Source: Candidatus Bathyarchaeia archaeon
GTDB taxonomy: Archaea; Thermoproteota; Bathyarchaeia; Bathyarchaeales; Bathycorpusculaceae
Assembly (NCBI GenBank): GCA_049516875.1
Contig: JBEKSS010000006.1
Span: 50,671-114,670 of the forward strand
DNA: 64,000 bases
Reading direction: 5' to 3'
The notes beneath the pieces were generated by a model. The model was not told the origin of the DNA. It made no database searches and worked only from the letters and a program-made list of their open reading frames with translations. How positions within the stretch are numbered: the stretch's first letter is position 1; each line of letters starts with the position of its first letter. The translations under genes were made by a program, and so were the position numbers. Shown here piece after piece: positions 4,041-35,752 of this stretch.

Positions 4041-4983
4041 CGCTTGCGAGTAGATCTTCAGGGTTCTTGATTCTGGAAGCGTCCTCGCTGCTAATGCAAG
4101 GGATGTTTTTTTCTGGTTGCTGCTCGTCCTCCGTTATGAGTATTGGACGTGCCCGGGTGACTCTGCTGACACTCAGTATTTCATCCACCCTTTTGTCCAG
4201 TTCCAGTTCTTTCCTGTTTGCGATACCGCCGATTATCCTCATTCTCTCTTCTGGAGCGCTTATTACGAAATCAAAAGGTGCCCTCTTAACCGCTGTGACG
4301 TGATAGTGGACCCATCTTCTGAGAATCTTGCTGAGAATCCTGTTTCTTGCAAGCATAAGCTTTGCTGTCGTCAGCACGCACGATTTGCGTTGATTCTCTG
4401 GCTTCTCAAGAATGTTCACTGATTTTGCGACTGGGATTCCCAGCGCCCAAATCAAGTTGTAAGCTGCCGTCACTGAGGCTTTCGCCATGCCCCGCTCGTA
4501 GCCGTAAATCGTTCTTCGGGACGTGCTCACCATCTCAGCCACTTCACCTGCTGACAACCCTAGTTCCTGTCTTCTCCGTTTCAGTGCCTCGCGGTCAATC
4601 TCGACGTAGTAGCCGCCAGGATTGGCTTGAATCAGTGGGCGTATGTTGTGAAGCACGACGTTCTTGAAGGTTCTTGGGGTGACGGCCAGAATATCGTGTC
4701 TCGTGTATACTGTGTCGTCTTGCAGGGGTTTTTCACGTGCTTCCTCGCCTATTAACAGGCAAGGCGCTGAGAAAGTTTCGGATATAGCTTTCAACTCTGT
4801 TGAATCGTTTGTTGAGAGGCTTCCGATGTCGGGTTGAACCCTCATGAAAATGAGAGTTTCACCTTTGCGGGCTGCAAGGTCGAAGCAGCTCGGCCGCGAA
4901 CGGCAGGGTTCAGAAACAGTAAACCCGGCTTCTCTTAGTGTGGATTCTGCGGCTCTTAAGCCCATCCTCACCAAGCAAGCCAT
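4033..4983 (-). CDS. Archaeal HTH transcriptional regulator (COG1395-like, XRE HTH)
   Basis: SCFDLAARK N-terminal domain, GGYYVEID, HTH LKRRRQELGLSAGEVAEMVSTSRRTIYGYERG, APFD. Confidence 0.85.
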   Translation of the reverse strand: MACLVRMGLRAAESTLREAGFTVSEPCRSRPSCFDLAARKGETLIFMRVQPDIGSLSTNDSTELKAISETFSAPCLLIGEEAREKPLQDDTVYTRHDILAVTPRTFKNVVLHNIRPLIQANPGGYYVEIDREALKRRRQELGLSAGEVAEMVSTSRRTIYGYERGMAKASVTAAYNLIWALGIPVAKSVNILEKPENQRKSCVLTTAKLMLARNRILSKILRRWVHYHVTAVKRAPFDFVISAPEERMRIIGGIANRKELELDKRVDEILSVSRVTRARPILITEDEQQPEKNIPCISSEDASRIKNPEDLLASVR

Positions 4984-5225
4984 GGAATCGCCACGTAGGA
5001 TAACCCAGTGCAGTGAAGGATATAAACTATATGACGAGTATCACAATGGGAGGATGCCTGTGGTTAGACAGAAAGTGAACATATTTCACTGTCGAGCCAT
5101 TTCAGAATCAAATGCAACAAACCTGAGTCGTGAATCTGGGCAGAAAGAAATAACAGTTACAAGAATGTTTTGAAGGTTGTCCCCATTTGTCAACACAATG
5201 AGCATGATTTGGTTGGCTTCCCAGG

Positions 5226-5927
5226 TCATGTATTGCTTTGAGCCACTATCATTGCGTGTGCCTTGTCGTAGGGTTCCAGGTACACAGTCTGTTCCGTGCG
5301 GAAACCGCGTTTTTCCAGCACTTTGATTTCGCGTTTGTAGATTTCTGATGGCTCTTTTGTCACGTCTATGCTTTGGGCTTTCACGGCCAGCATTATCCAT
5401 CCTGAGTTCTTGAGGAACAGGTCGGCGTTGTCTGCTAAAATTTTTGCTTGCTCAGACTGGGCTATGTCGCAGTAGATGTCATCGACCTTTCTGGTGATGA
5501 ATATCGCATATTTTTCTGGAAAGCGTGCATCTTCGAGTATGGGCGACATGTTTAGCCTGTAATTGCACACGTTGTCCACTAGATCCCTTATTGATCTTGA
5601 AGCAAACTCTACGCAGTACACGTGGCCTTTTTCGCCTATTATGTCTGAAACGTGGCTGGCCGTTGTCCCTGAGGCTGCGCCCAGGTAAAGGACTGTGTGC
5701 CCCGGTTTTATCGGGATTGTGTTTAAACCTTTCAGAATTGCCGCGGCAAGTTTGCTTCTGAACGCGTCCCATACGCGGTATTCTGCGCCATCAAACCTTA
5801 CGAGCCTTTCTCCGTAGACGTTCCTTCCGTGCGACAGGTTTTTTGTCGCGAGCCGTTGTGCACCTTCTTCAAGCATCACTTGATATACAGCTTGAAACTG
5901 GGGGTGTGGCTTTACCTTAACGTTCAC
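5226..5927 (-). CDS. flpA: Fibrillarin-like rRNA/tRNA 2'-O-methyltransferase
   Basis: VYGERL, YRVWDAFRSKLAAAI, VLYLGAASGTTASHVSD, DIAQ; probable GTG start at 5927 overlapping the nop5 stop. Confidence 0.96.
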   Translation of the reverse strand: MNVKVKPHPQFQAVYQVMLEEGAQRLATKNLSHGRNVYGERLVRFDGAEYRVWDAFRSKLAAAILKGLNTIPIKPGHTVLYLGAASGTTASHVSDIIGEKGHVYCVEFASRSIRDLVDNVCNYRLNMSPILEDARFPEKYAIFITRKVDDIYCDIAQSEQAKILADNADLFLKNSGWIMLAVKAQSIDVTKEPSEIYKREIKVLEKRGFRTEQTVYLEPYDKAHAMIVAQSNT

Positions 5928-15595: not shown

Positions 15596-17017
15596 GTGGA
15601 CGGCGCTGCGAATTTCTCCGGAAAGGAAGAAATCCTCAAGTTGATTTCAAACAACAACGTAAGAATCCTCAACCTTTGCCATGTTCCCGAAGACGGAAGA
15701 TTGAAGACCCTGAGTTTCTCAATCGCAAACAGAGATAGAGTCAACGAGATTTTAGATTTCGGTGAAAGAGTTGACGGTTCAAGTCTGTTCTCGTTTGTGG
15801 AGCCTGGCAAAAGCGATATCTACATAATGCCCGGCACGGATAGAGCTTTTGTTGATCCATTTTCAACCTTGCCCGCAGTAAACATCATGTGCGACTATTT
15901 GGGTGAAAACGGGAAACCCTTGGATATAGCTCCGAAAACTGTTTTGGTGCGGGCTGAAGAACAGCTGAGTTCTTCAGCACATATCACTCTGAAAGCCCTG
16001 GTCGAGCTTGAGTTCTACATAATTGCGAAACAGCAGACTGAAGTTCTTTTTCCAGCATGGTCGGACAAGAACTATCATGAATCTGCGCCCTTCGCCAAGT
16101 TTCAGGACTTGAGGAATGAAGTTTTAGCGACTTTAGACCTTGTGGGCATACCCACAAAATACGCGCATGGAGAAGTCGGTCTAGCTTATGACAAGAACGA
16201 CACCCTTATGGAACAGCATGAAATAGAGTTCAAACCACAGAATCTTACCAAGATGGCGGAAACATTAGCGATTGCAAAGTGGGTTATCAGAAACGTTTGC
16301 TCCAGACACGGGGTATCTGTCTCTTTCATCCCCAAGATTGACTTGAACCACGCTGGAACAGGGATGCACATACACGTGTGTGGGCTTAAGAACGGCAACA
16401 ACGTGGTTTCCAATCCTGACGGAACTCTGAGCCTTGAAGCGTTGAAGATCATAGGAGGCTTATTGAAGCTCGCACCAAGTCTTGCGGCCTTTGGAAATCC
16501 CACGCCGGTATCATACCTGCGGTTCATTGCACGCAAAGAATCACCGATGCACATCTGCTGGAGCGCCCGAAACCGTCTGGCTCTAATACGCATACCATTG
16601 TGGTGGAGCTTCAAGAAAGCAAGCGAAAAAGCAGAGAGCTGCAGAGAAACCTTCGAATACAGGGCCCCAGACGCCTTTGCCAATGCTTACCTCCTCTTTG
16701 CTGGACTGACCGTGGCAGCGGGTTATGGGCTGAAGAACTCGAAAGAATCGCTGAAGCTTGCTGAAGACTTGCACATTGAAGCAGCTGAAAACGAAGGCAA
16801 GAATCTTGAGGTCTTGCCACGCTCATGCAGCGAAGCAGTCGAAAATCTTGAGAGAGACAGGCATTATTATGAAGCAACCGGGGTCTTCCCAAAGAGACTC
16901 ATCGACGAAACTGTGAGAAAACTGAGAGCTTTCGAAGATAAGAACATTTGGAAAGAGTTGTCCAGCAACCCAGAGAAAATAGAAAAGACAATAATGGAAT
17001 ACATTCACTACGGCTAG
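15596..17017 (+). CDS. Glutamine synthetase family protein (divergent)
   Basis: VDGSSLF, ELEFYI, HGEVG, QHEIEF, GTGMHIH, NRLALIRIP, FEYRAPD. Confidence 0.88.
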   Translation: MDGAANFSGKEEILKLISNNNVRILNLCHVPEDGRLKTLSFSIANRDRVNEILDFGERVDGSSLFSFVEPGKSDIYIMPGTDRAFVDPFSTLPAVNIMCDYLGENGKPLDIAPKTVLVRAEEQLSSSAHITLKALVELEFYIIAKQQTEVLFPAWSDKNYHESAPFAKFQDLRNEVLATLDLVGIPTKYAHGEVGLAYDKNDTLMEQHEIEFKPQNLTKMAETLAIAKWVIRNVCSRHGVSVSFIPKIDLNHAGTGMHIHVCGLKNGNNVVSNPDGTLSLEALKIIGGLLKLAPSLAAFGNPTPVSYLRFIARKESPMHICWSARNRLALIRIPLWWSFKKASEKAESCRETFEYRAPDAFANAYLLFAGLTVAAGYGLKNSKESLKLAEDLHIEAAENEGKNLEVLPRSCSEAVENLERDRHYYEATGVFPKRLIDETVRKLRAFEDKNIWKELSSNPEKIEKTIMEYIHYG

Positions 17018-20751: not shown

Positions 20752-20977
20752 AGAGCCAGCGCGCTGAAAGCAGTCACAATTCTTCGGCAACGGCAACGAG
20801 CGCGGTAGAGGAAATGAAGCTCGCGGAAGGTGGGCTTGAATATGCATACACAGCTCAAGAAGCTATGACGCTGTTCAAGAAAGGAAAGTAAAATGAACGG
20901 AACTTCGTGTTGATAATGAAAAACACAGAGTAACAAATATAAGCAAGAATTGTCCCATGGAACTCGATCGGTGTATC

Positions 20978-21955
20978 ATGATGAGTATCTGGAAGCTTCG
21001 TTTGTCTATGGCTGGGACGCTTGCCCTAATACTGGGTTTGTCAACACTGTTCTTCACGGTCATTCTGAGTCTGACCGGAGCTTTTGATTCTGGAAATCTT
21101 GGGTTCTTGATGCTAGGTGTTCTGGTTGCAGGGTTTAACGTTGTCCAGTGGCTTGTTTCACCCTACATAATCGATGCTCTGTACCACGTGCGTGCGATGT
21201 CTGCAACTGAGGAGCCGAAGCTTCATGAGGTTGTTGATGACCTCAGCAGGAAGAGTAACATTAGCAAGCCTAGGCTTATGCTTGCGCAAATCCCGATACC
21301 AAACGCTTTTGCCTACGGTTCGCCAATAGCTGGAACTCGCATAGCCGTTACGAGTGGGCTTTTGAAAACGTTGGACCAAGGTGAGGTTGAAGCTGTCGTC
21401 GGACATGAACTTGGACACCTAAGACACAGGGACGTGCAGATCATGATGTTCGTTTCATTGTTGCCTGCAGTGGCCTACTTCATAGGTTACTCCCTCATGC
21501 TTTCAGGCATGTTCGGAGGAAACCAAAAGAATCAAAGCAGCGGCGCAGTGATAGGCATAGTCTTCATGGCTTTTTCATTTATAATGAACCTGTTCATACT
21601 TAATCTCAGCAGGCTACGCGAATACTACGCTGACAGACACAGCGCGTCAATTGTCGACGGCGGCTCAGAGAAACTCTCGACAGGACTGGCAAAAATAGTA
21701 AGTGCAAGCAAGAACATGGGAAGGATGAAACAGCAAACAAAGAACCTGAACGGCTTCAAAGCGCTGTTCATCACCGACCCTGACCGCGCAAACGTTGATT
21801 CTGCTGAATTATCCGCTATGTCAGTCGGAGACAAGCAAAAGCTAGTTCAAGAGATAATGTCAAAGAAGCTGACAACTGGCGATCGGATCCTTGAGATCCT
21901 CTCAACACACCCCAACATAGTCAAGCGACTGAAAGCCTTACAAGAGCTGGCCTAA
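20978..21955 (+). CDS. htpX: M48 zinc metalloprotease HtpX
   Basis: PNAFAYG, GHELGHLRHRD, SRLREYYAD, STHPNIVKRL; TM helices. Confidence 0.93.
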   Translation: MMSIWKLRLSMAGTLALILGLSTLFFTVILSLTGAFDSGNLGFLMLGVLVAGFNVVQWLVSPYIIDALYHVRAMSATEEPKLHEVVDDLSRKSNISKPRLMLAQIPIPNAFAYGSPIAGTRIAVTSGLLKTLDQGEVEAVVGHELGHLRHRDVQIMMFVSLLPAVAYFIGYSLMLSGMFGGNQKNQSSGAVIGIVFMAFSFIMNLFILNLSRLREYYADRHSASIVDGGSEKLSTGLAKIVSASKNMGRMKQQTKNLNGFKALFITDPDRANVDSAELSAMSVGDKQKLVQEIMSKKLTTGDRILEILSTHPNIVKRLKALQELA

Positions 21956-25165: not shown

Positions 25166-26437
25166 TTAGTCTACTATTCTTCCTTTCTCTGCCACTAGTT
25201 TTCCGTCTTTGAAGACTTTCTCTGCTAGGTTAATGCCGTAGTGATATGCAAAGAACTTGTGATTTGGTGCATCAAAGATGACTATGTCTGCCTTTTTTCC
25301 CTCCTCCAAGCTTCCTATTTCATGGGCTCTCTCTATAGAGTGTGCAGCGTTGATTGTTGATGCTGTAAGCGCCTCCTCTGTGGTCATTCTCATCTGGAGA
25401 ATTGCAATAGTTATCATCATCTGCATTGATTCGCACATGTCTGCCGCGCTCAGATCGGTTCCTAGCGCTATGGGCAGTCTTTTGTTGATGATTTCTCTCG
25501 CTTTTGCATACGTGCCCAAATAGCAGAATGGGGTTGTTGGCAAGAATGTTCCGATTATGCCTTTTTTCACCAGAGCTTCGATTTCCTCGGGTGGTGTGAA
25601 GATTAGGTGGTCAGCGGAGATGACTCCCAGCTCTGCGCCTAGTTTTGCTCCTCCGCTATGAGCCAGCCAGTCAGCATGAATTCTCAACTTCATTCCGTAT
25701 TTTCTGCCCGCCTCGAGTATTCGCCTAGACTGCTCTACGTTGAAGTATCCTTTCTCGCAGAACACGTCACAGTATTCAGCCAGTTTTCTCTTCGCAACTT
25801 CTGGAATCCATTTTTTAACTACTTCATCTGTTAACTGATCAACCTTGTTTTCGTATTCGAAGGGAATGCCTTGAGCCATGAAAGTTGGAATCAAGTCGAC
25901 TGGATGCATCTCGTTAAGTGCTTTGATTATTTCTAGTTGTCTGATTTCGCCTTGAAGCGTCATTTCATATCCGCTTTTCGCTTCTATCGTTGTCGTGCCG
26001 TGCAGTAGCATCGTGTCAAGTATTCTGATGGTTTTTTTGAGCAGTTCTTCTGTGGATGTTTCGCCAGTCTTTTTTAGGGTTGTCGGCATTCCTCCTCCTC
26101 TTGCTTTGATTTCCAAGTACGGCGTACCTTTCACAGCCATCTGCTCAAGTTCTTCCTCTCTTGAACCGGCGAAAACCAGGTGGACGTGAGGATCGATGAG
26201 TCCCGGCGTGACGAGTTTACCGCTTGCGTCTATGACTTCAAACCCTTTTTCAAGCCTGTCCAAGACCTCCTTCGTAGTGCCGACGGCCACTATTCTTCCA
26301 TCTTCGACTGCGACTGCTCCGTCTTCTATTATGGCCAGATCATTCATTTCCTCTTTGATCTGGGGTTTGCAGCTTTTTCCCCTCAGAGTCGCTAGCTCAT
26401 TTGCGTTGATTATTGCGAAATCAGCTCTTATCGCCAT
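25166..26437 (-). CDS. Imidazolonepropionase-like amidohydrolase (divergent HutI)
   Basis: PGLIDPHVHLVFAGSREEE, GTTTIEAKSGY, DVFCEKG, SADHL, GSLEEGKKAD; several substrate-site motifs altered (see findings). Confidence 0.85.
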   Translation of the reverse strand: MAIRADFAIINANELATLRGKSCKPQIKEEMNDLAIIEDGAVAVEDGRIVAVGTTKEVLDRLEKGFEVIDASGKLVTPGLIDPHVHLVFAGSREEELEQMAVKGTPYLEIKARGGGMPTTLKKTGETSTEELLKKTIRILDTMLLHGTTTIEAKSGYEMTLQGEIRQLEIIKALNEMHPVDLIPTFMAQGIPFEYENKVDQLTDEVVKKWIPEVAKRKLAEYCDVFCEKGYFNVEQSRRILEAGRKYGMKLRIHADWLAHSGGAKLGAELGVISADHLIFTPPEEIEALVKKGIIGTFLPTTPFCYLGTYAKAREIINKRLPIALGTDLSAADMCESMQMMITIAILQMRMTTEEALTASTINAAHSIERAHEIGSLEEGKKADIVIFDAPNHKFFAYHYGINLAEKVFKDGKLVAEKGRIVD

Positions 26438-26468
26438 GTTTTCTCCTCTTTTCACGGGTATGCGAGCG

Positions 26469-27797
26469 CTACACGTCTAGATACTTCTTTCTTTCCCACT
26501 CGTGCACGGTGGCGTTGTAGTCCTTCCACTCCTTAGTTTTGAGTTCCAGGAATTTTTCGCAGAATGCTTTTCCCAAAGCGTCTTGCAAGCACTTGTCTTT
26601 AGAGAATTCGTTCAAAGCATCTCCTAGAGTTCCGGGAAGCACTCCTATGCCTTTCTTGGCTCTTTCTTTTTCGCTCATCTCGTAAATATCCTCTTCGACA
26701 GGCTCTGGAAGCTCAGTTCTTCTTTTGATGCCATCCAAGCCGGCGGCCAGGATAGCGGCAAACGCAAGGTAGAAATTGCAAGATCCATCCGTGGGCCTGT
26801 ACTCCAACCTGGTTCTCATCCCTTTTCCAGGTGGAACCCTGACGAGAACTGACCGGTTATACTTGGCCCACGAAAGGTAGACTGGGGCCTCCCACCCTGG
26901 TACAAGCCGTTTGTACGAGTTAACGGACGGGTTAGTCACGGCTGCTAAAGCCTTTGCGTGAGCTAACAACCCGGCTATGAAATTCAGGGCAGTCTTGCTC
27001 AGGCCATAGCTTCCTTTTGGATCATAAAACAGATTCTGAGCCTTCTTATCGTTTGTAAGACTGACGTGAGTGTGCAGTCCACATCCATAGCCGCCGTGAA
27101 AAGGCTTCGGCATAAAAGAGGCAAAAAGTCCCCTTCTGGCCGCTGTCATCTTCACAACAAACTTGACCAAGTAAATCGTGTCAGCCATTCTCAGTGCATC
27201 CGCATAGGCCAGGTTCAGCTCGGATTTTCCCGGAGGCACTTCATGATGATGCTTTTCAACCAGAACACCGGCGTTTCTAAGATTCTCCGTAATCTCAAGT
27301 CTCAAATCAGCGCCAACATCTGCTGGAGGACTAGCCAAATATCCTGCTTCATCGATTAGTCTTATGCTGCCGTCTTCGCCCTTTTTGAAAACGAAATACT
27401 CTATCTCGCTGCACGCGTTATACTTGACACTGGTCCCCAGGTTCTTCTTGGAATCGTTCACAACCTTCTTAAGTATGAACCTTGGGTCAAGCTCAAAAAG
27501 TTTATCTGATTCCGGCTCGTAAATGTCACAAACCACTCTTGCCACTTTCTGAGGGAAAAGACTGGTTGGCAGAATGGCGAACGTGTCCACGTCCGGCACG
27601 AGTTTCAAGTCGCTTTTGCTTATGTCTACCATGTCGACGGATGAACCATCCGTGTGTATGCCGTCTTCAGCAACCTTTGACAACATCTCAGAGGGAATCC
27701 AAAGAGAGTGCAAGATGCCAGACAAGTCCGTAAACTGTAACACTATCTCCTTCACGTTTTCCTTTTCAACTATCTTCACAACCTCAGACATGCTCAT
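26469..27797 (-). CDS. glnA: Type I glutamine synthetase family protein
   Basis: LQFTDLSG, TDGSSV, HHHEVPPG, FMPKP, GLHTH, NSYKRLVPGWEAP, NRSVLVRVP, RLEYRPTD. Confidence 0.88.
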   Translation of the reverse strand: MSMSEVVKIVEKENVKEIVLQFTDLSGILHSLWIPSEMLSKVAEDGIHTDGSSVDMVDISKSDLKLVPDVDTFAILPTSLFPQKVARVVCDIYEPESDKLFELDPRFILKKVVNDSKKNLGTSVKYNACSEIEYFVFKKGEDGSIRLIDEAGYLASPPADVGADLRLEITENLRNAGVLVEKHHHEVPPGKSELNLAYADALRMADTIYLVKFVVKMTAARRGLFASFMPKPFHGGYGCGLHTHVSLTNDKKAQNLFYDPKGSYGLSKTALNFIAGLLAHAKALAAVTNPSVNSYKRLVPGWEAPVYLSWAKYNRSVLVRVPPGKGMRTRLEYRPTDGSCNFYLAFAAILAAGLDGIKRRTELPEPVEEDIYEMSEKERAKKGIGVLPGTLGDALNEFSKDKCLQDALGKAFCEKFLELKTKEWKDYNATVHEWERKKYLDV

Positions 27798-27909
27798 TCC
27801 AATCCCTCACAGAACATCACCTCTTCTTTTATATTATTTTTCTTCTGCATGCGCGCTAGACTTATATTTCGCTGGAATCAGAGCTCCTAGAAGGATTGGA
27901 GATTACTGA

Positions 27910-28815
27910 ATGGAGTTTAGGGTAAACGGGATTCCAATTGAAGATACTTTCTGTGAGACGTTTACAGTTCGAATCGCCAGGATACTTGTAACCTCTGTAA
28001 ACAGAAAATGGGCTCTGGAATCAGCCTTGGAAACCAAAGGCCTTGGCAGATCAGCCACTATTCCACCTTCAGAAGCCTCCATAGAGGCTGAAGCTAAGCC
28101 TGAAGAGACTCCCGACGGCAGACCGGGTTTCATAATCCAGTTCATTGACAGAAAGCCGGAGCCGTTGAAAGAATGGCTCGTAGTCAGAATAAGGAAGGGA
28201 ATCATGCCCTATCCTAAGACTAGCGTGTTTGATGTTTTGCCATCGGGAATGGCTGAGGAATTTGTGGATATCAAGGGCACAATCATACAGACCTTCGGAG
28301 ACGGATTTGAAGAGGAAACCGAGGTTTTCGGAAAGAAGGTTTTCAAGATACCGAGGATGGACGGTTATTTTCTTGTTGAAAGAAGATTCGGAATCGCGAA
28401 AGGCGTGGCTGGTGGCATGTTCCTGATTCTAGCGAGGTCGGATGAAGCCGCGTTGAAAGCTGCTGAACGGGCTGTTGAGGACACGAAAACCGTTCCTTAT
28501 GTAGTCGGGAAGTTTGCTGCTTCCGGAACCAAGGTCGGAGGGAAAAACTACAAGGATGCTATAGCCACAACCAATGATGCATACTGTCCTTGCCTGGCGG
28601 GAAACGAGGGGAGCAAGATCCCTGAGGGCGTGAAATGCGTCTACGAAGTCATAGTCAGTGGATTAAGGCTGGAGGATGTAAGTAGAGCAATGAGAGTCGG
28701 CATAGAAAACGCGACAAAGGCTCATGGAGTGACGAGAATAACCACAGCAAACTATGGTGGAACCTTGGGTAAAGGCAAAATTCATCTACAAAGCTTGTTT
28801 GACCTCAAAAGTTGA
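27910..28815 (+). CDS. ftr: Formylmethanofuran:tetrahydromethanopterin formyltransferase paralog (divergent)
   Basis: VNGIPIEDTFCETF, TPDGRPG, FGDGFE, IPRMDG, GVAGG, TNDAYCP, VYEVIV, NYGGTLGK. Confidence 0.85.
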   Translation: MEFRVNGIPIEDTFCETFTVRIARILVTSVNRKWALESALETKGLGRSATIPPSEASIEAEAKPEETPDGRPGFIIQFIDRKPEPLKEWLVVRIRKGIMPYPKTSVFDVLPSGMAEEFVDIKGTIIQTFGDGFEEETEVFGKKVFKIPRMDGYFLVERRFGIAKGVAGGMFLILARSDEAALKAAERAVEDTKTVPYVVGKFAASGTKVGGKNYKDAIATTNDAYCPCLAGNEGSKIPEGVKCVYEVIVSGLRLEDVSRAMRVGIENATKAHGVTRITTANYGGTLGKGKIHLQSLFDLKS

Positions 28816-28907
28816 AGACATCCTGCGACATGAGCGAACCTAGCGCGTGCTAGAAACAGAAGATTAAAGTGGGCATTCATCAATTATACTCACGTAACGA
28901 GATACCT

Positions 28908-32689: not shown

Positions 32690-33655
32690 ATGATGTCAAA
32701 ATTGGCTAAAGAGAAGCTTGCTGAGATGTACGAGAAAATGCTTGAAATTCGGTGTTTTGAAGAGAAGGTTTTCGAGCTTTACGGTCAAAATCTTGTTCCA
32801 GGCACCATACACCTCTACGCTGGAGAAGAAGCCGTGGCGGTTGGGGTTTGCAGCTGCCTGCGTAAGGACGATTACATCACAAGCACACACAGAGGCCATG
32901 GACATTGCATAGCGAAAGGCGCCGAACTGAAACGTACGATGGCGGAAATTCTTGGGAAGAAAACCGGTTATTGCAAGGGCAAAGGCGGCTCGATGCACAT
33001 CGCCGATTTCAACATAGGTATGCTCGGCGCAACTGCAGTCGTGGGCGCTGGATTGCCAATAGCTGTGGGCGCTGGTCTGTCGGCCAAGCTCAGAAAGACG
33101 GATCAGGTCGTGGCATGCTTCTTCGGCGAAGGAGCTTCCAACCAAGGAACCTTTCACGAAAGCATAAACATGGCTTCAACATGGTCCCTGCCCGTGATTT
33201 TTGTCTGCGAGAACAACCTTTACGCCATGGGAACGTGTCAGTCAAGAGTAATGAAAATCCAAAACATAGCCGACCGCGCCGTGGCCTACGGAATCTCAGG
33301 CGTGACGGCGGATGGAAATGACGTTTTGGCGGTTTTCGAAGCCTCGCAAAAGGCTGTTGACCGAGCTAGAAGCGGCGCTGGGCCGACGCTTATCGAATGT
33401 AAAACTTACCGCCACAAAGGCCACTCGCGGGTTGATCCCGCCAAGTACAGGCCGAGGGAAGAAGTTGAGCAATGGTTAGCCAAAGATCCCATCAAACGCT
33501 TCAGAGAAACACTACTGCAAAATAACACTTTTTCACAAGCCGAAATCAAGAAGATTGAAGAAAACGTTGCCGCTGAGATCGAAGAAGCCGTAAAGTTCGC
33601 GGTCGAAAGCCCCTATCCTGCCCCGGAAGAAGCCTTAGAAGACGTTTACGCCTAG
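32690..33655 (+). CDS. 2-oxoacid/acetoin dehydrogenase E1 alpha
   Basis: HLYAGEEA, STHRGHGH, GKGGSMH, GEGASNQG...CENN TPP motif, TYRHKGHS. Confidence 0.94.
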   Translation: MMSKLAKEKLAEMYEKMLEIRCFEEKVFELYGQNLVPGTIHLYAGEEAVAVGVCSCLRKDDYITSTHRGHGHCIAKGAELKRTMAEILGKKTGYCKGKGGSMHIADFNIGMLGATAVVGAGLPIAVGAGLSAKLRKTDQVVACFFGEGASNQGTFHESINMASTWSLPVIFVCENNLYAMGTCQSRVMKIQNIADRAVAYGISGVTADGNDVLAVFEASQKAVDRARSGAGPTLIECKTYRHKGHSRVDPAKYRPREEVEQWLAKDPIKRFRETLLQNNTFSQAEIKKIEENVAAEIEEAVKFAVESPYPAPEEALEDVYA

Positions 33656-33669
33656 GAAAGGGACATATC

Positions 33670-34644
33670 ATGAAGAGAACAACCTATCGAGAGGCACTGC
33701 GTGAAGCGTTGAGAGAGGAGATGCGCCGGGATTCTTCAGTATTCCTCTTGGGCGAAGACATCGGCAGACAATGGGGTGGAGCCTTCAAGGTTACAGATGG
33801 TTTGGCTCAGGAGTTTGGAGACGAAAGAGTCAGAGACACCCCGATATCAGAATCAGCGATAGTGGGCGCGGGCGTGGGTGCTGCGATAACGGGCATGCGT
33901 CCCGTCGCCGAAATAATGTTCGGAGACCTAACTGCACTGGCCATGGATCAGATAGCGAACCAAGCAGCAAAAATCAGGTACATGTTCGGCGGCCAAGCAT
34001 CATGTCCATTGGTAATCAGAACGCCGTTTGGCGCGGGCGTCAACATCGCCTCCCACCATTCACAGAGCCTAGAAGCATGGTTCATGCACGTTCCCGGCCT
34101 CCAAGTCGCTGTACCATCAACCCCGTACGATGCTAAGGGGCTCCTGAAAACAGCCATACGCGGAAACAACCCCGTCTTCTTCTGCGAACACAAACTGCTC
34201 TATCCAGTCGAAGGTGACGTTCCACAGGAGGAGTACACGATTCCATTCGGAGTAGCCGACGTCAAGAGGAAAGGATCGGACGTTACCGTCGTCGCCACCC
34301 TATACATGGTTCATAAAGCGCTAAACGCTGCTGCAACGCTTGAGGAGGAAGGGGTAAACGCTGAAGTCATCGACCCGAGAACACTAACCCCGCTGGACAA
34401 GAAGACTATAATTGATTCGGTGAAAAAGACTGGGAGGCTGGTTATCGTGAGTGAAGACTGCAAGACCGCAGGTGTAAGCGCTGAAATCGCTTCAGTGGTC
34501 GCTGAAGAAGCCATAGACTATCTGGATGCCCCGATAAAGAGAGTAACATGCGCGGACACGCCTATACCGTTCAGTCCACCCTTGGAACAGTACGTGATTC
34601 CGAACGAAAAAGCCATAATCAAGGCAGTCAAGGAAGTTGTCTGA
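33670..34644 (+). CDS. 2-oxoacid/acetoin dehydrogenase E1 beta
   Basis: GEDIG, RVRDTPISE, RPVAEIMF, HSQSLEAW, EHKLLY, DPRTLTPLD. Confidence 0.94.
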   Translation: MKRTTYREALREALREEMRRDSSVFLLGEDIGRQWGGAFKVTDGLAQEFGDERVRDTPISESAIVGAGVGAAITGMRPVAEIMFGDLTALAMDQIANQAAKIRYMFGGQASCPLVIRTPFGAGVNIASHHSQSLEAWFMHVPGLQVAVPSTPYDAKGLLKTAIRGNNPVFFCEHKLLYPVEGDVPQEEYTIPFGVADVKRKGSDVTVVATLYMVHKALNAAATLEEEGVNAEVIDPRTLTPLDKKTIIDSVKKTGRLVIVSEDCKTAGVSAEIASVVAEEAIDYLDAPIKRVTCADTPIPFSPPLEQYVIPNEKAIIKAVKEVV

Positions 34645-34645
34645 A

Positions 34646-35752
34646 ATGGTGACTAAGATCGTGATGCCTAGGCTCAGCTTAACGATGAAAGAGGGCACGG
34701 TCGGCAAATGGTACAAGAAAGAGGGCGAAAGCGTTGAAAAGGGCGAACCGATCGTTGAAGTGGTGTCAGAAAAGGCCACGTACGATCTCGAAGCGCCATC
34801 CTCGGGTATCCTGAGGAAAGTCCTTGTGCAAGAGGGCGTTGATGTCCCTGTCAACGCAGTCATAGGCGTCATAACCGCGCCCGACGAGCCCTTCTCAGAA
34901 GCTGCAGCAATAACAGAAACACAAGAAACAGTTGAGGCTGAAAGTGAGAAGCGATTTCCAGCCTCACCCGCCGCCAAACGCTTGGCAAGAGAATACGGCA
35001 TAGACCTGTCAACCGTCAAGGGCAGCGGGCCTGAAGGACGAATAGCGGAAGAGGATGTCCAACGCCTCATCGAAGAGAGGGCCGGGACCGGCCCAAAGGT
35101 CAGGCAGACAATCCCGCTGAGCGGCTACAAGAAGACGACGGCTGAACGGCTCTCCATAAGCTTCAGAACAGCCCCGCACAGCACGATAATCATGGAAACC
35201 GACGTTTCCAAAGCAGCCGAACTGCACCACAAAACCCAAGTCTCCTACACGACCATCATCGTGAAAGCCGCCGCCAAAGCCCTAAGCGAAATACCCCTGC
35301 TAAACTCGACGCTTGAAGGCGACCGAATAAAAATGTTCGAAGACGTGAACGTCGGCGTGGCCGTCGCCACAGAAAATGGCCTAATTGTGCCCGTCATACA
35401 CAACGCCGACAAAAAAACGCTCAAAGAAATAGACGCCGCCATCAAAGAGCTAACCGAAAAAGCTCGACAGGCAAAACTCACAAAAGAAGACCTAACAGGA
35501 GGAACCTTCACCATCACCAACCTAGGCATGTACGACGTCGACTTCTTCACCCCCATAATCAATCCCCCCGAAGCCGCCATCCTCGGCATCGGAAAAATCA
35601 CCGAAAAACCAGTTGCCTCCAACTCAAGAATCGAAATCAAACCCGTGGTGATGCTAAGCCTGTCATACGACCACAGAATCGTAGACGGCGCACCCGCAGC
35701 CCAATTCCTTCAACGCGTTAAAGAAAGAATCGAAAGTATAACGGAACAATAA
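34646..35752 (+). CDS. Dihydrolipoamide acyltransferase E2
   Basis: Lipoyl domain (VVSEKAT), E3-binding domain (ASPAAKRLA...GSGPEGRI), catalytic DHRIVDG. Confidence 0.94.
   Translation: MVTKIVMPRLSLTMKEGTVGKWYKKEGESVEKGEPIVEVVSEKATYDLEAPSSGILRKVLVQEGVDVPVNAVIGVITAPDEPFSEAAAITETQETVEAESEKRFPASPAAKRLAREYGIDLSTVKGSGPEGRIAEEDVQRLIEERAGTGPKVRQTIPLSGYKKTTAERLSISFRTAPHSTIIMETDVSKAAELHHKTQVSYTTIIVKAAAKALSEIPLLNSTLEGDRIKMFEDVNVGVAVATENGLIVPVIHNADKKTLKEIDAAIKELTEKARQAKLTKEDLTGGTFTITNLGMYDVDFFTPIINPPEAAILGIGKITEKPVASNSRIEIKPVVMLSLSYDHRIVDGAPAAQFLQRVKERIESITEQ

Follow-up and report, generated by a model that had tools for sequence, protein, structure and literature searches.

Histidine utilization and its closest counterparts

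The histidine-utilization (Hut) pathway is known with several endings, and these, together with the formyltransferase Ftr and the imidazolonepropionase HutI, are the closest described counterparts of a three-gene module that we analyze here in a 64-kb stretch of DNA (the window; G000:C6:50671-114670) from a Bathyarchaeia metagenome-assembled genome (MAG), G000. The module, hereafter the trio, encodes a paralog of Ftr (FtrP), a glutamine synthetase (GS) and a variant of HutI (HutIp). Judging from gene content and neighborhoods, the trio is probably the terminal cassette of a variant Hut pathway, in which HutIp would consume imidazolonepropionate or formiminoglutamate, FtrP would pass the one-carbon (C1) unit to tetrahydromethanopterin (H4MPT) and GS would make glutamine.

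The nearest known system is the Hut ending with glutamate formiminotransferase (FT, the FT of FTCD; PF07837, FTCD_N). It belongs to the same pathway and takes the same operon position, with FT and HutI directly upstream of HutU-HutH in syntenic Bathyarchaeia, and its presumed outcome is likewise glutamate, a C1 unit on a pterin carrier and ammonia. However, FtrP lacks FTCD_N and is a member of the Ftr family, so that it would be an analogue rather than a relative of FT; the presumed acceptor of the trio is H4MPT as opposed to tetrahydrofolate; and the trio includes a GS and a distinct "W-type" HutI, with a distribution that is mutually exclusive with that of FTCD_N. Ftr itself (PDB 1FTR/2FHJ; FhcD of methylotrophs, 6S6Y) shares with FtrP the same two-lobe domains, the residue aligned with Glu245 and most of the family-invariant residues; in contrast to Ftr, FtrP displays changes that are fixed within the GFGTSVIMCPAEAG and RIGQCVMT segments, among them the gain of Lys and Arg, forms a separate clade, and has GS, HutIp and hut genes rather than fwd/fhc as neighbors. 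HutI (EC 3.5.2.7; B. subtilis 2BB0, A. tumefaciens 2GOK) resembles HutIp in that the latter exceeds the TIGR01224 cut-off, keeps the metal ligands and the carboxylate-binding Arg/Tyr/Tyr set, and shares operons with hutU and hutH in relatives of G000. HutIp differs in having Gln and Trp in place of His185 and Glu252, a Glu after Tyr152 and TDLSA in place of TDFNP, and in being always paired with GS and FtrP.

In a five-step bacterial branch of Hut, HutF, a formiminoglutamate deiminase of the amidohydrolase superfamily, frees ammonia to give N-formylglutamate, from which the amidohydrolase HutG removes the formyl group. Its possible likeness to the trio would be a chemical analogy only: no HutF or FGase homolog was found in G000, and the formyl group would stay on H4MPT instead of leaving as formate.

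The Ftr2 paralogs of anaerobic methanotrophic archaea (ANME) and methanogens are described as uncharacterized (PMC9012536), two Ftr genes appear without comment in a Bathy-6 genome (bioRxiv 10.1101/2024.09.16.613360), histidine breakdown in an Asgard isolate is drawn via formyl-glutamate and folate (bioRxiv 10.1101/726976), and a Methanoperedens hut operon includes a formiminoglutamase (PMC13444090). Literature searches returned, as far as the available texts go, no description of the trio or of an Ftr paralog in histidine catabolism, though supplementary tables could list the genes. The trio occupies the following positions of the window:

25166..26455, minus strand: HutIp, an amidohydrolase of the HutI family ("W-type" variant); translation probably starts at the ATG at 26437, for a protein of 423 aa
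26469..27797, minus strand: GS, a type I-alpha glutamine synthetase, directly upstream of HutIp
27798..27909, no strand: divergent intergenic region of 112 bp, with two TATA-like boxes and the GC-rich element GCATGCGCGCTAG between them
27910..28815, plus strand: FtrP, an Ftr paralog; proposed glutamate-N-formyl/formimino:H4MPT transferase

A conserved and mobile three-gene module

A search for related loci returned 29, of which 23, from GTDB species genomes, contain an FtrP ortholog with 70% identity or more. To these we added one locus (G124) from a sample of 201 genomes of the class Bathyarchaeia, and five from a sample of 151 Asgard genomes, drawn after the hypothesis had been formed, which gave five new FtrP-bearing genomes; these 29 FtrP-ortholog loci are the basis of what follows. 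"Trio genomes" are those with an FtrP ortholog, namely 24 relatives, G000 and the five further Asgard genomes, 30 in all. The loci of the search come from Bathyarchaeia and from Asgard lineages labeled Atabeyarchaeia, Hod-, Hermod- and Promethearchaeota. One locus (L020) is labeled Krumholzibacteriaceae bacterium yet carries an archaeal trio, and is therefore probably a mis-binned contig.

GS adjoins FtrP in 27 of the 29 loci (21 of the 23 from species genomes, G124 and all five new Asgard loci), and HutIp adjoins GS in 23 of them, while in four more the contig ends inside GS or HutIp. Among the 23 species-genome loci, the GS ortholog is 64-85% identical in 21 and is followed by a HutIp ortholog (72-86%) in 20, one contig ending inside GS. 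The order in G124 is FtrP-GS-HutIp; in the new Asgard loci HutIp is visible in three, the contigs of the other two ending in GS. In the two exceptions (L019 in G221 and L031 in G223) a GS-HutIp pair is found elsewhere in the genome. When the 14 flanking genes of the window were searched against the 23 loci, only an M48 peptidase was matched, and in a single locus; hence, the conservation is specific to the trio. The trio is a conserved, mobile module, which agrees with the proposal of an earlier note, made from the window sequence alone, that the three genes are a functional unit linking C1 and nitrogen metabolism. In most genomes FtrP runs opposite to GS-HutIp, but in G210 and G124 all three genes point the same way, which implies that an inversion occurred in the history of the family.

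The module takes the place of formiminotransferase and HutI in hut operons

Clustering of the open reading frames (ORFs) in the flanks of the 23 loci recovered HutH (PF00221) in seven loci and HutU (PF01175) in five as recurrent neighbors, together covering 10 of the 23. Furthermore, hutH lies beside FtrP in four of the five new Asgard loci, one of which also has hutU. Counted over 28 loci, 14 have hutH and/or hutU within about 7 kb. The arrangements are diverse: G210 has FtrP-GS-HutIp-HutU-HutH, all on the same strand and 2-17 bp apart; in G214 HutU-HutH faces FtrP, followed by GS-HutIp; the closed Atabeyarchaeia genome G205 has HutU, three unrelated genes, HutH and then HutIp-GS pointing away from FtrP; two loci (L021 and L034) have HutIp-GS followed by FtrP-HutI(canonical)-HutU; and in G271, as in G205 and G214, HutIp lies within the hut cluster. 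The genes between hutU and hutH in Atabeyarchaeia, which are ThiN, an AIR-synthase-like gene and one unknown gene, were considered as pathway members and dropped. At the level of whole genomes hutU is present in 23 of the 30 FtrP-bearing genomes, as against 39 of the 201 in the Bathyarchaeia sample.

The strongest single result is a swap of cassettes between otherwise syntenic operons. Comparison of G210 with G062 reveals collinear regions that share HutU (85.5% identity), HutH (78%), the M48 peptidase (79%) and genes of 470, 344 and 129 aa. Directly upstream of HutU, G062 encodes a 305-aa formiminotransferase (FTCD_N) and an E-type HutI, whereas G210 encodes FtrP, GS and HutIp, the last being only 47% identical to the HutI of G062. 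The other flank tells the same story, with THUMP-CGI121-PRT preceding FtrP in G124 and FT in G130 and G008. Nine of ten FT-type clusters have a HutI in range; eight of these display HADE, KSGYGL and TD[FY]NP, and in the ninth KSGYGL was seen but the search for HxDE failed. The idea, raised earlier, of a pathway separate from histidine degradation does not accord with these relatives, which hold the trio inside hutH/hutU clusters where it replaces formiminotransferase and HutI.

The two cassettes are also complementary across genomes. FTCD_N was found in none of the 30 trio genomes (0 of the 24 relatives, not in G000 and 0 of the five new Asgard genomes). Among the 101 hutU-bearing genomes of the Asgard sample, it occurs in none of the nine with FtrP, as against 72 of the 92 without, 20 having neither. 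Among the 39 hutU-bearing genomes of the Bathyarchaeia sample, it occurs in one of the six with an FtrP of the trio type or of a sister type (g76, see below), as against 31 of the remaining 33; a further FtrP subclade (f20), whose genomes lack hutU, thus falls outside this count.

In G000 (2.43 Mb in 20 contigs, 97.5% complete), hutU and a canonical hutI (476.4 bits on TIGR01224) are encoded on contig C1, with hutI directly before hutU. This provides the hut genes that the earlier note had suggested looking for elsewhere in the genome; none is found on the contig of the trio and, as that note had observed, a scan of gene families within the 64-kb window detected no hutH, hutU, hutG or fwdA. 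The hutI-hutU pair of C1 is flanked by genes for ABCE1, Asparaginase_2, THUMP, CGI-121, Sua5 and UbiD, and all but the first of these families flank the trio in relatives; accordingly, the trio of G000 has been separated from its hut partners. In the window, the M48 peptidase gene (20957-21955, plus strand), 3.2 kb from HutIp, encodes a protein 59% identical to the M48 peptidase that follows HutH in the hut operon of G210, and looks like a remnant of an ancestral layout from which hutU-hutH was lost or moved.

No match to FTCD_N, FGase (PF05013) or HutF (TIGR02022) was recovered in G000, and the sole match to a HutG model (138.8 bits) falls below the cut-off of 229. Given that hutI-hutU is present, formiminoglutamate can thus be made from urocanate in G000, with no recognized enzyme to use it. 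As for the presumed acceptor, FwdA is present in 25 of 25 and Mch in 21 of 25 trio genomes, and in G000 the two are encoded side by side on contig C2. An ORF at C9:28.2-29.8 kb, considered as a candidate FwdA, was dropped, having no NCBIfam match at 1e-20, the real FwdA being that of C2. No FhcA/B/C-type genes occur near FtrP, whose neighbors code for GS, HutIp, DUF373 and DUF7121 proteins, so that a partnership of the kind seen in the Fhc complex, as had been raised before, is not borne out.

FtrP is a divergent member of the Ftr family

FtrP (P0003) contains the two Ftr domains (PF01913, FTR; PF02741, FTR_C) but barely clears the family cut-offs, with 297.7 bits against 297 on NF002554 and 295.5 against 292.6 on TIGR03119, i.e. 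by less than 3 bits. G000 encodes three Ftr homologs, of which FtrP is the most divergent; the canonical copy, Ftr1 at C1:105 kb, scores 386.8 and 373.5 bits on the same models. A canonical ftr, which the earlier note had proposed to seek, is therefore present elsewhere in the genome. In a tree of the family (built from ORFs of 230-420 aa, each with over 250 aligned residues, and from the representatives P0123-P0172 of 285-345 aa, identical sequences merged) FtrP falls in a separate, long-stemmed clade. The view that the paralog is not the housekeeping Ftr is upheld.

FtrP aligns with the Ftr of M. kandleri with 264.8 bits and preserves nearly all residues conserved in the Ftr family, including the glycine-rich segments and the position of Glu245, which is E246 in the motif VYEV of FtrP and is a Glu in all 22 trio, all four g76 and all seven f20 proteins. 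Glu245 is reportedly catalytic, according to a 2006 paper on the structure of Ftr in complex with its coenzymes. The two altered segments reported before, GLGRSATIPPSEAS and RIRKGIMP, are indeed present in FtrP when it is compared with the M. kandleri and A. fulgidus enzymes. Against 34 other members of the family, six changes are fixed across the clade (I50T, Q96K, T100P, S211G, L217A and S220T) and five are specific to the trio (A29S, G57S, T103K, P199V and G201K); P0125 was excluded from all groups in this comparison of residues. We infer that the gain of basic residues in the two altered segments would be suited to a donor that is a small dicarboxylate.

A sister subclade of FtrP (g76 genomes), 54-57% identical, is encoded head-to-head with hutU in an operon of the form FtrP-(enolase-superfamily)-GS, in which the GS is 44-45% identical to that of the window (P0002). 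The enolase-superfamily (MR_MLE) gene is found between the FtrP-like gene and GS, opposite hutU, at 4457-5578 of locus L044 (G128), and other g76 loci are alike. In NCBIfam its product resembles, in all cases below cut-off, a muconate cycloisomerase subfamily, L-Ala-D/L-Glu epimerase and N-acetyl-D-Glu racemase (145 bits). The latter two families act on N-acylated glutamate; these below-cut-off likenesses give a hint that the substrate of FtrP may be of that kind.

The third Ftr homolog of G000 (C1:486113-487027; L012 9113-10027) is encoded in a co-directional purF-purD-HAD-ftr-pfkB cluster and groups with an Ftr paralog of Methanobacteriaceae in the tree, which hints at a possible role in purine formylation. 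In another genome, the FtrP match at L033 1802-2850 is in two pieces about 210 bp apart.

HutIp retains the metal center of HutI with a remodeled pocket

On TIGR01224 (cut-off 298.15) HutIp (P0001) reaches 401.6 bits, and in alignment with B. subtilis HutI (2BB0) 339 bits, but only 39 bits on TIGR03121; it is thus of the HutI family and not of the FwdA family. Its identity to E-type HutI of the same or related genomes is 43-47%. The motifs TFMAQG, HADW, TDLSAA and KSGYEM, which had been singled out earlier as departures from HutI, are all present relative to both B. subtilis HutI and the canonical HutI of G000. In B. subtilis numbering, HutIp retains H80, H82, H249, H272 (the β-6 His), D324, R89, Y102 and Y152, and differs by H185Q, E252W, G153E and TDFNPG to TDLSAA. 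His80, His82, His249 and Asp324, which we take to be the ligands of a mononuclear metal, are identical in HutIp and invariant across the alignment of its orthologs. Arg89, Tyr102, Tyr152, His185 and Glu252 are said, in the paper on the B. subtilis HutI structure, to contact a substrate analogue; of this set HutIp retains the Arg and both Tyr, and loses His185 and Glu252. The ring-contact signature is fixed in 20 of 20 orthologs, whereas the usual residues are found in 3 of 3 canonical copies (with Glu at position 252). The alignment accordingly supports the earlier proposal of a remodeled substrate pocket around intact metal ligands.

The same note held that the substrate is not imidazolonepropionate, which now appears doubtful. 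HutIp is the only match to TIGR01224 in 17 of the 24 related trio genomes, and 11 of these 17 have hutU, two being closed Asgard chromosomes; as the sole HutI-family protein of hutU-bearing genomes, it most likely takes the product of HutU there. Where HutIp and canonical HutI coexist, even within a single cluster as in L021 and L034, their coexistence suggests that the two are not redundant.

The canonical HutI of G000 (C1:157832-159181; L010 9833-11182), encoded beside hutU, has SADN where the other HutI proteins, HutIp included, have SADH. The site corresponds to the β-6 His272 of B. subtilis HutI. Owing to this replacement, the canonical enzyme of G000 may be impaired, leaving HutIp as the working one.

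The glutamine synthetase belongs to a lineage specific to the module

The GS of the trio (P0002) scores 464.6 bits on TIGR00653 (cut-off 429.15) and 400.5 bits, over residues 4-441, against the solved GSI-alpha 7TDP, as opposed to only 253.7 against the glutamate-methylamine ligase 9QUR. Its DGSS, ExE, HHE, NSYKR, GWEAP-flap and RxExR motifs, presumably forming the metal, glutamate and ammonium sites, all align with those of 7TDP; the EAP flap previously noted as intact is thus present as GWEAP. By sequence it is a normal GSI-alpha, which fits the suggestion of an ammonia trap, whereas the other suggestion, that it glutamylates a carrier amine, found no support, there being no departure from GSI-alpha. 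The GS is 64-85% identical across the Bathyarchaeia and Asgard trio genomes and constitutes a module-specific lineage.

A second GS, only 38-43% identical to that of the trio, is encoded in 17 of the 24 related genomes; for this reason, the notion that the trio GS is a mere housekeeping glnA was dropped. In G000 there are only two genes of the GS family, P0002 and a 27%-identical GS-like gene at 15596-17017 of the window (plus strand; 473 aa), which scores 253 bits on TIGR00653 against the cut-off of 429 and is followed by tRNA-Lys and an MBL-fold gene. Matches at 27-33%, like this one, occur in 11 of the 24 related trio genomes.

Proposed pathway and competing explanations

In light of the above, the trio is best explained as what H4MPT-containing Bathyarchaeia and Asgard archaea use instead of formiminotransferase and canonical HutI, a variant of the known Hut pathway whose prediction has good support from comparative genomics. 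For the substrates of the two enzymes, the acceptor H4MPT and the part played by GS we propose the following. HutH and HutU would yield 4-imidazolone-5-propionate, and HutIp, as a zinc amidohydrolase with a remodeled ring pocket, would open it, releasing either N-formimino-L-glutamate or, as we favor, an N-formyl product and ammonia, by opening the ring and then deiminating the product or by attacking the amidine carbon. FtrP would transfer the C1 unit to N5 of H4MPT with release of glutamate, formyl transfer being the chemistry of its family, and the C1 unit would enter the H4MPT Wood-Ljungdahl branch via Mch. GS would spend ATP to combine the freed glutamate and ammonia into glutamine, and on either side of its gene would lie those for the enzymes that supply its two substrates. 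In G000, given that no hutH was found, the pathway may in fact start from urocanate or from an intermediate further down.

The N-formyl route would explain why a special HutI always goes with FtrP, why it coexists with canonical HutI and why the cassette contains a GS. In its full form we advance it only tentatively: FtrP would be an N-formylglutamate/formiminoglutamate:H4MPT C1-transferase, HutIp a bifunctional imidazolonepropionate hydrolase/deiminase giving the N-formyl donor and ammonia, and the dedicated GS would convert the products to glutamine, the three genes making up a cassette that was exchanged between Bathyarchaeia and Asgard archaea and is interchangeable with formiminotransferase and HutI. 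For the first time, a C1 unit derived from an amino acid would then be seen to enter the archaeal Wood-Ljungdahl branch in a methanopterin-dependent way. In a plainer alternative, HutIp would be an imidazolonepropionase and FtrP a formiminotransferase, with ammonia released on cyclization.

Several observations weigh against the Hut-cassette interpretation as a whole. In G000 the trio lies on a different contig from hutI-hutU, and no hutH was found in this 97.5% complete genome. In seven of the 30 FtrP-ortholog genomes no hutU was found, and four of these (G223, labeled a chromosome, G202, G209 and G215) showed neither hutH nor hutU, which implies that the module can exist without the upstream steps unless the MAGs are incomplete. 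Canonical HutI coexists with HutIp in G000 and in five of the 24 other trio genomes, which is awkward if HutIp is a plain imidazolonepropionase; moreover, having lost the counterpart of Glu252, HutIp might not hydrolyze the ring in the usual way. One g76 genome (G158) holds an FtrP-like gene and FTCD_N together. The f20 subclade, 50-54% identical to FtrP and with most of the pocket changes in common, comes from genomes in which neither hutU nor FTCD_N was found, and would thus speak against a simple view of one clade with one function. The Fisher values for FtrP versus FTCD_N (5e-6 in Asgard, 2e-4 in Bathyarchaeia) ignore kinship and are upper bounds on significance, since related genomes are not independent. 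Finally, co-transfer of adjacent genes could hold the trio together without any matching of their chemistries.

An alternative would see in HutIp an imidazolonepropionase isozyme of the usual kind, in GS the housekeeping glnA and in FtrP an ordinary formyl-methanofuran:H4MPT formyltransferase isoenzyme, kept together by hitch-hiking, adjacency and common nitrogen control, while formiminoglutamate goes to an unrecognized enzyme. In its favor, each of the three proteins lies above its NCBIfam equivalog cut-off, the Glu245 position is intact in FtrP, neither G000 nor the closed genome G205 has a canonical GS other than that of the trio, and the trio moves between phyla as a block at 64-86% identity, so that the linkage could be historical. 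We nevertheless regard this explanation as unlikely: FtrP exceeds its cut-offs by a margin below 3 bits whereas Ftr1 reaches 386.8; FTCD_N was found in none of the 30 trio genomes and yet in most other hutU-bearing ones; the syntenic operons exchange FT and HutI for FtrP, GS and HutIp position for position; the independent g76 subclade is also found beside hutU; and in the 17 genomes with a second GS the trio copy is an extra one.

Still less likely is a Hut-linked role that does without H4MPT, with FtrP as a hydrolase or lyase that frees formate or formamide, in analogy to HutG or N-formylglutamate amidohydrolase, and HutIp as an imidazolonepropionase and/or formiminoglutamate deiminase. The genomic data fix the position in the pathway and not the acceptor, the proposed methanofuran-cleft segments of FtrP are altered, and the five-step bacterial pathway likewise uses an amidohydrolase-superfamily deiminase followed by a deformylase. 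On the other hand, FtrP preserves nearly all the family-wide residues of Ftr, including the Glu245 position and the glycine-rich segments, H4MPT is available, as indicated by FwdA and Mch in the trio genomes, and we know of no hydrolase in the Ftr family.

Least likely of all is the version of the earlier note, a histidine-independent C1/nitrogen pathway in which FtrP would pass to H4MPT the C1 unit of another N-formyl or formimino compound, imported or made by another route, with GS recapturing ammonia or glutamylating an amine: it could draw on the four trio genomes without hutH and hutU (one a labeled chromosome), on a HutIp whose ring-contact residues are all changed while the carboxylate-binding ones are retained, and on the f20 subclade with no hut association, but is at odds with hutU in 23 of 30 trio genomes, with hutH and/or hutU near half of 28 loci, with the cassette swap, with HutIp as the sole HutI-family protein in 11 hutU-bearing genomes, and with a GS that shows no departure from GSI-alpha.

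If the Hut-cassette interpretation is true, a second reaction would be known in the Ftr family, and the Hut pathway would have a fourth type of ending beside FTCD, HutG and HutF plus HutG. The fermentation of amino acids would be tied directly to the H4MPT Wood-Ljungdahl branch in two sediment lineages that are abundant and uncultured, the Asgard relatives of eukaryotes being one, and the carbon- and nitrogen-flow models of both would change. Since the source records annotate the trio genes as "ftr", "imidazolonepropionase" and "glnA", an "ftr" match alone would then be no marker of the CO2-reduction route, and a "glnA" may be an accessory copy.

Intergenic region and other features of the window

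The coordinates and strands of the three ORFs agree with those given earlier, HutIp and GS being co-oriented and FtrP head-to-head with them, with 112 bp between the starts of GS and ftr. The distance from the GS stop to the start of HutIp is 13 bp with a GTG start or 31 bp with the ATG at 26437, the latter matching the spacing of about 30 bp noted before; this ATG has a GAGGAG-like site ahead of it and yields a protein of 423 aa, the length typical of the orthologs. The intergenic sequences of 18 loci were compared by eye on the raw letters, unaligned, one of them (L029 2331-2431) reading as N; in most of them a box resembling TTTATAT precedes ftr by about 45 bp, and a TATA-like box in reverse orientation precedes GS. 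In L021 and L034 the GS/ftr intergenic region contains a GCATGCG-type inverted repeat. The ftr gene of the window is further flanked by a pair of short motifs:

27852-27859, minus strand, and 28840-28847, plus strand: 8-base inverted pair CTAGCGCG, 58 bp before the start and 25 bp after the stop of ftr

The motif CTAGCGCG has three copies in the window, a count matched by 18 of 100 shuffles. We considered the pair as a sign that ftr had arrived alone and dropped it, as the copy number is at the level of chance, no copy of the motif was seen in the intergenic regions of the orthologous loci compared above and the three genes are conserved together. The corresponding worry of the earlier note, that CG motifs bracketing ftr might mark a trio that is not conserved, is answered by GS adjoining FtrP in nearly all loci.

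The closest relatives of G000 proteins are named Bathyarchaeota or Bathyarchaeia by the source records, and no mcrA was found in this 97.5% complete genome. Sequencing runs matching this DNA comprise 24 DNA sets, from peat, wetland and sediment metagenomes, and no RNA set. Other neighbors in the window, unrelated to the trio, code for M48 and M20 peptidases, ATP-grasp_5, DUF7121 and DUF373 proteins, a UPP synthase and a GTPase. At 32690-35752 (plus strand) the window has ORFs that resemble, by eye only, the E1-alpha, E1-beta and E2 components of a 2-oxoacid dehydrogenase.

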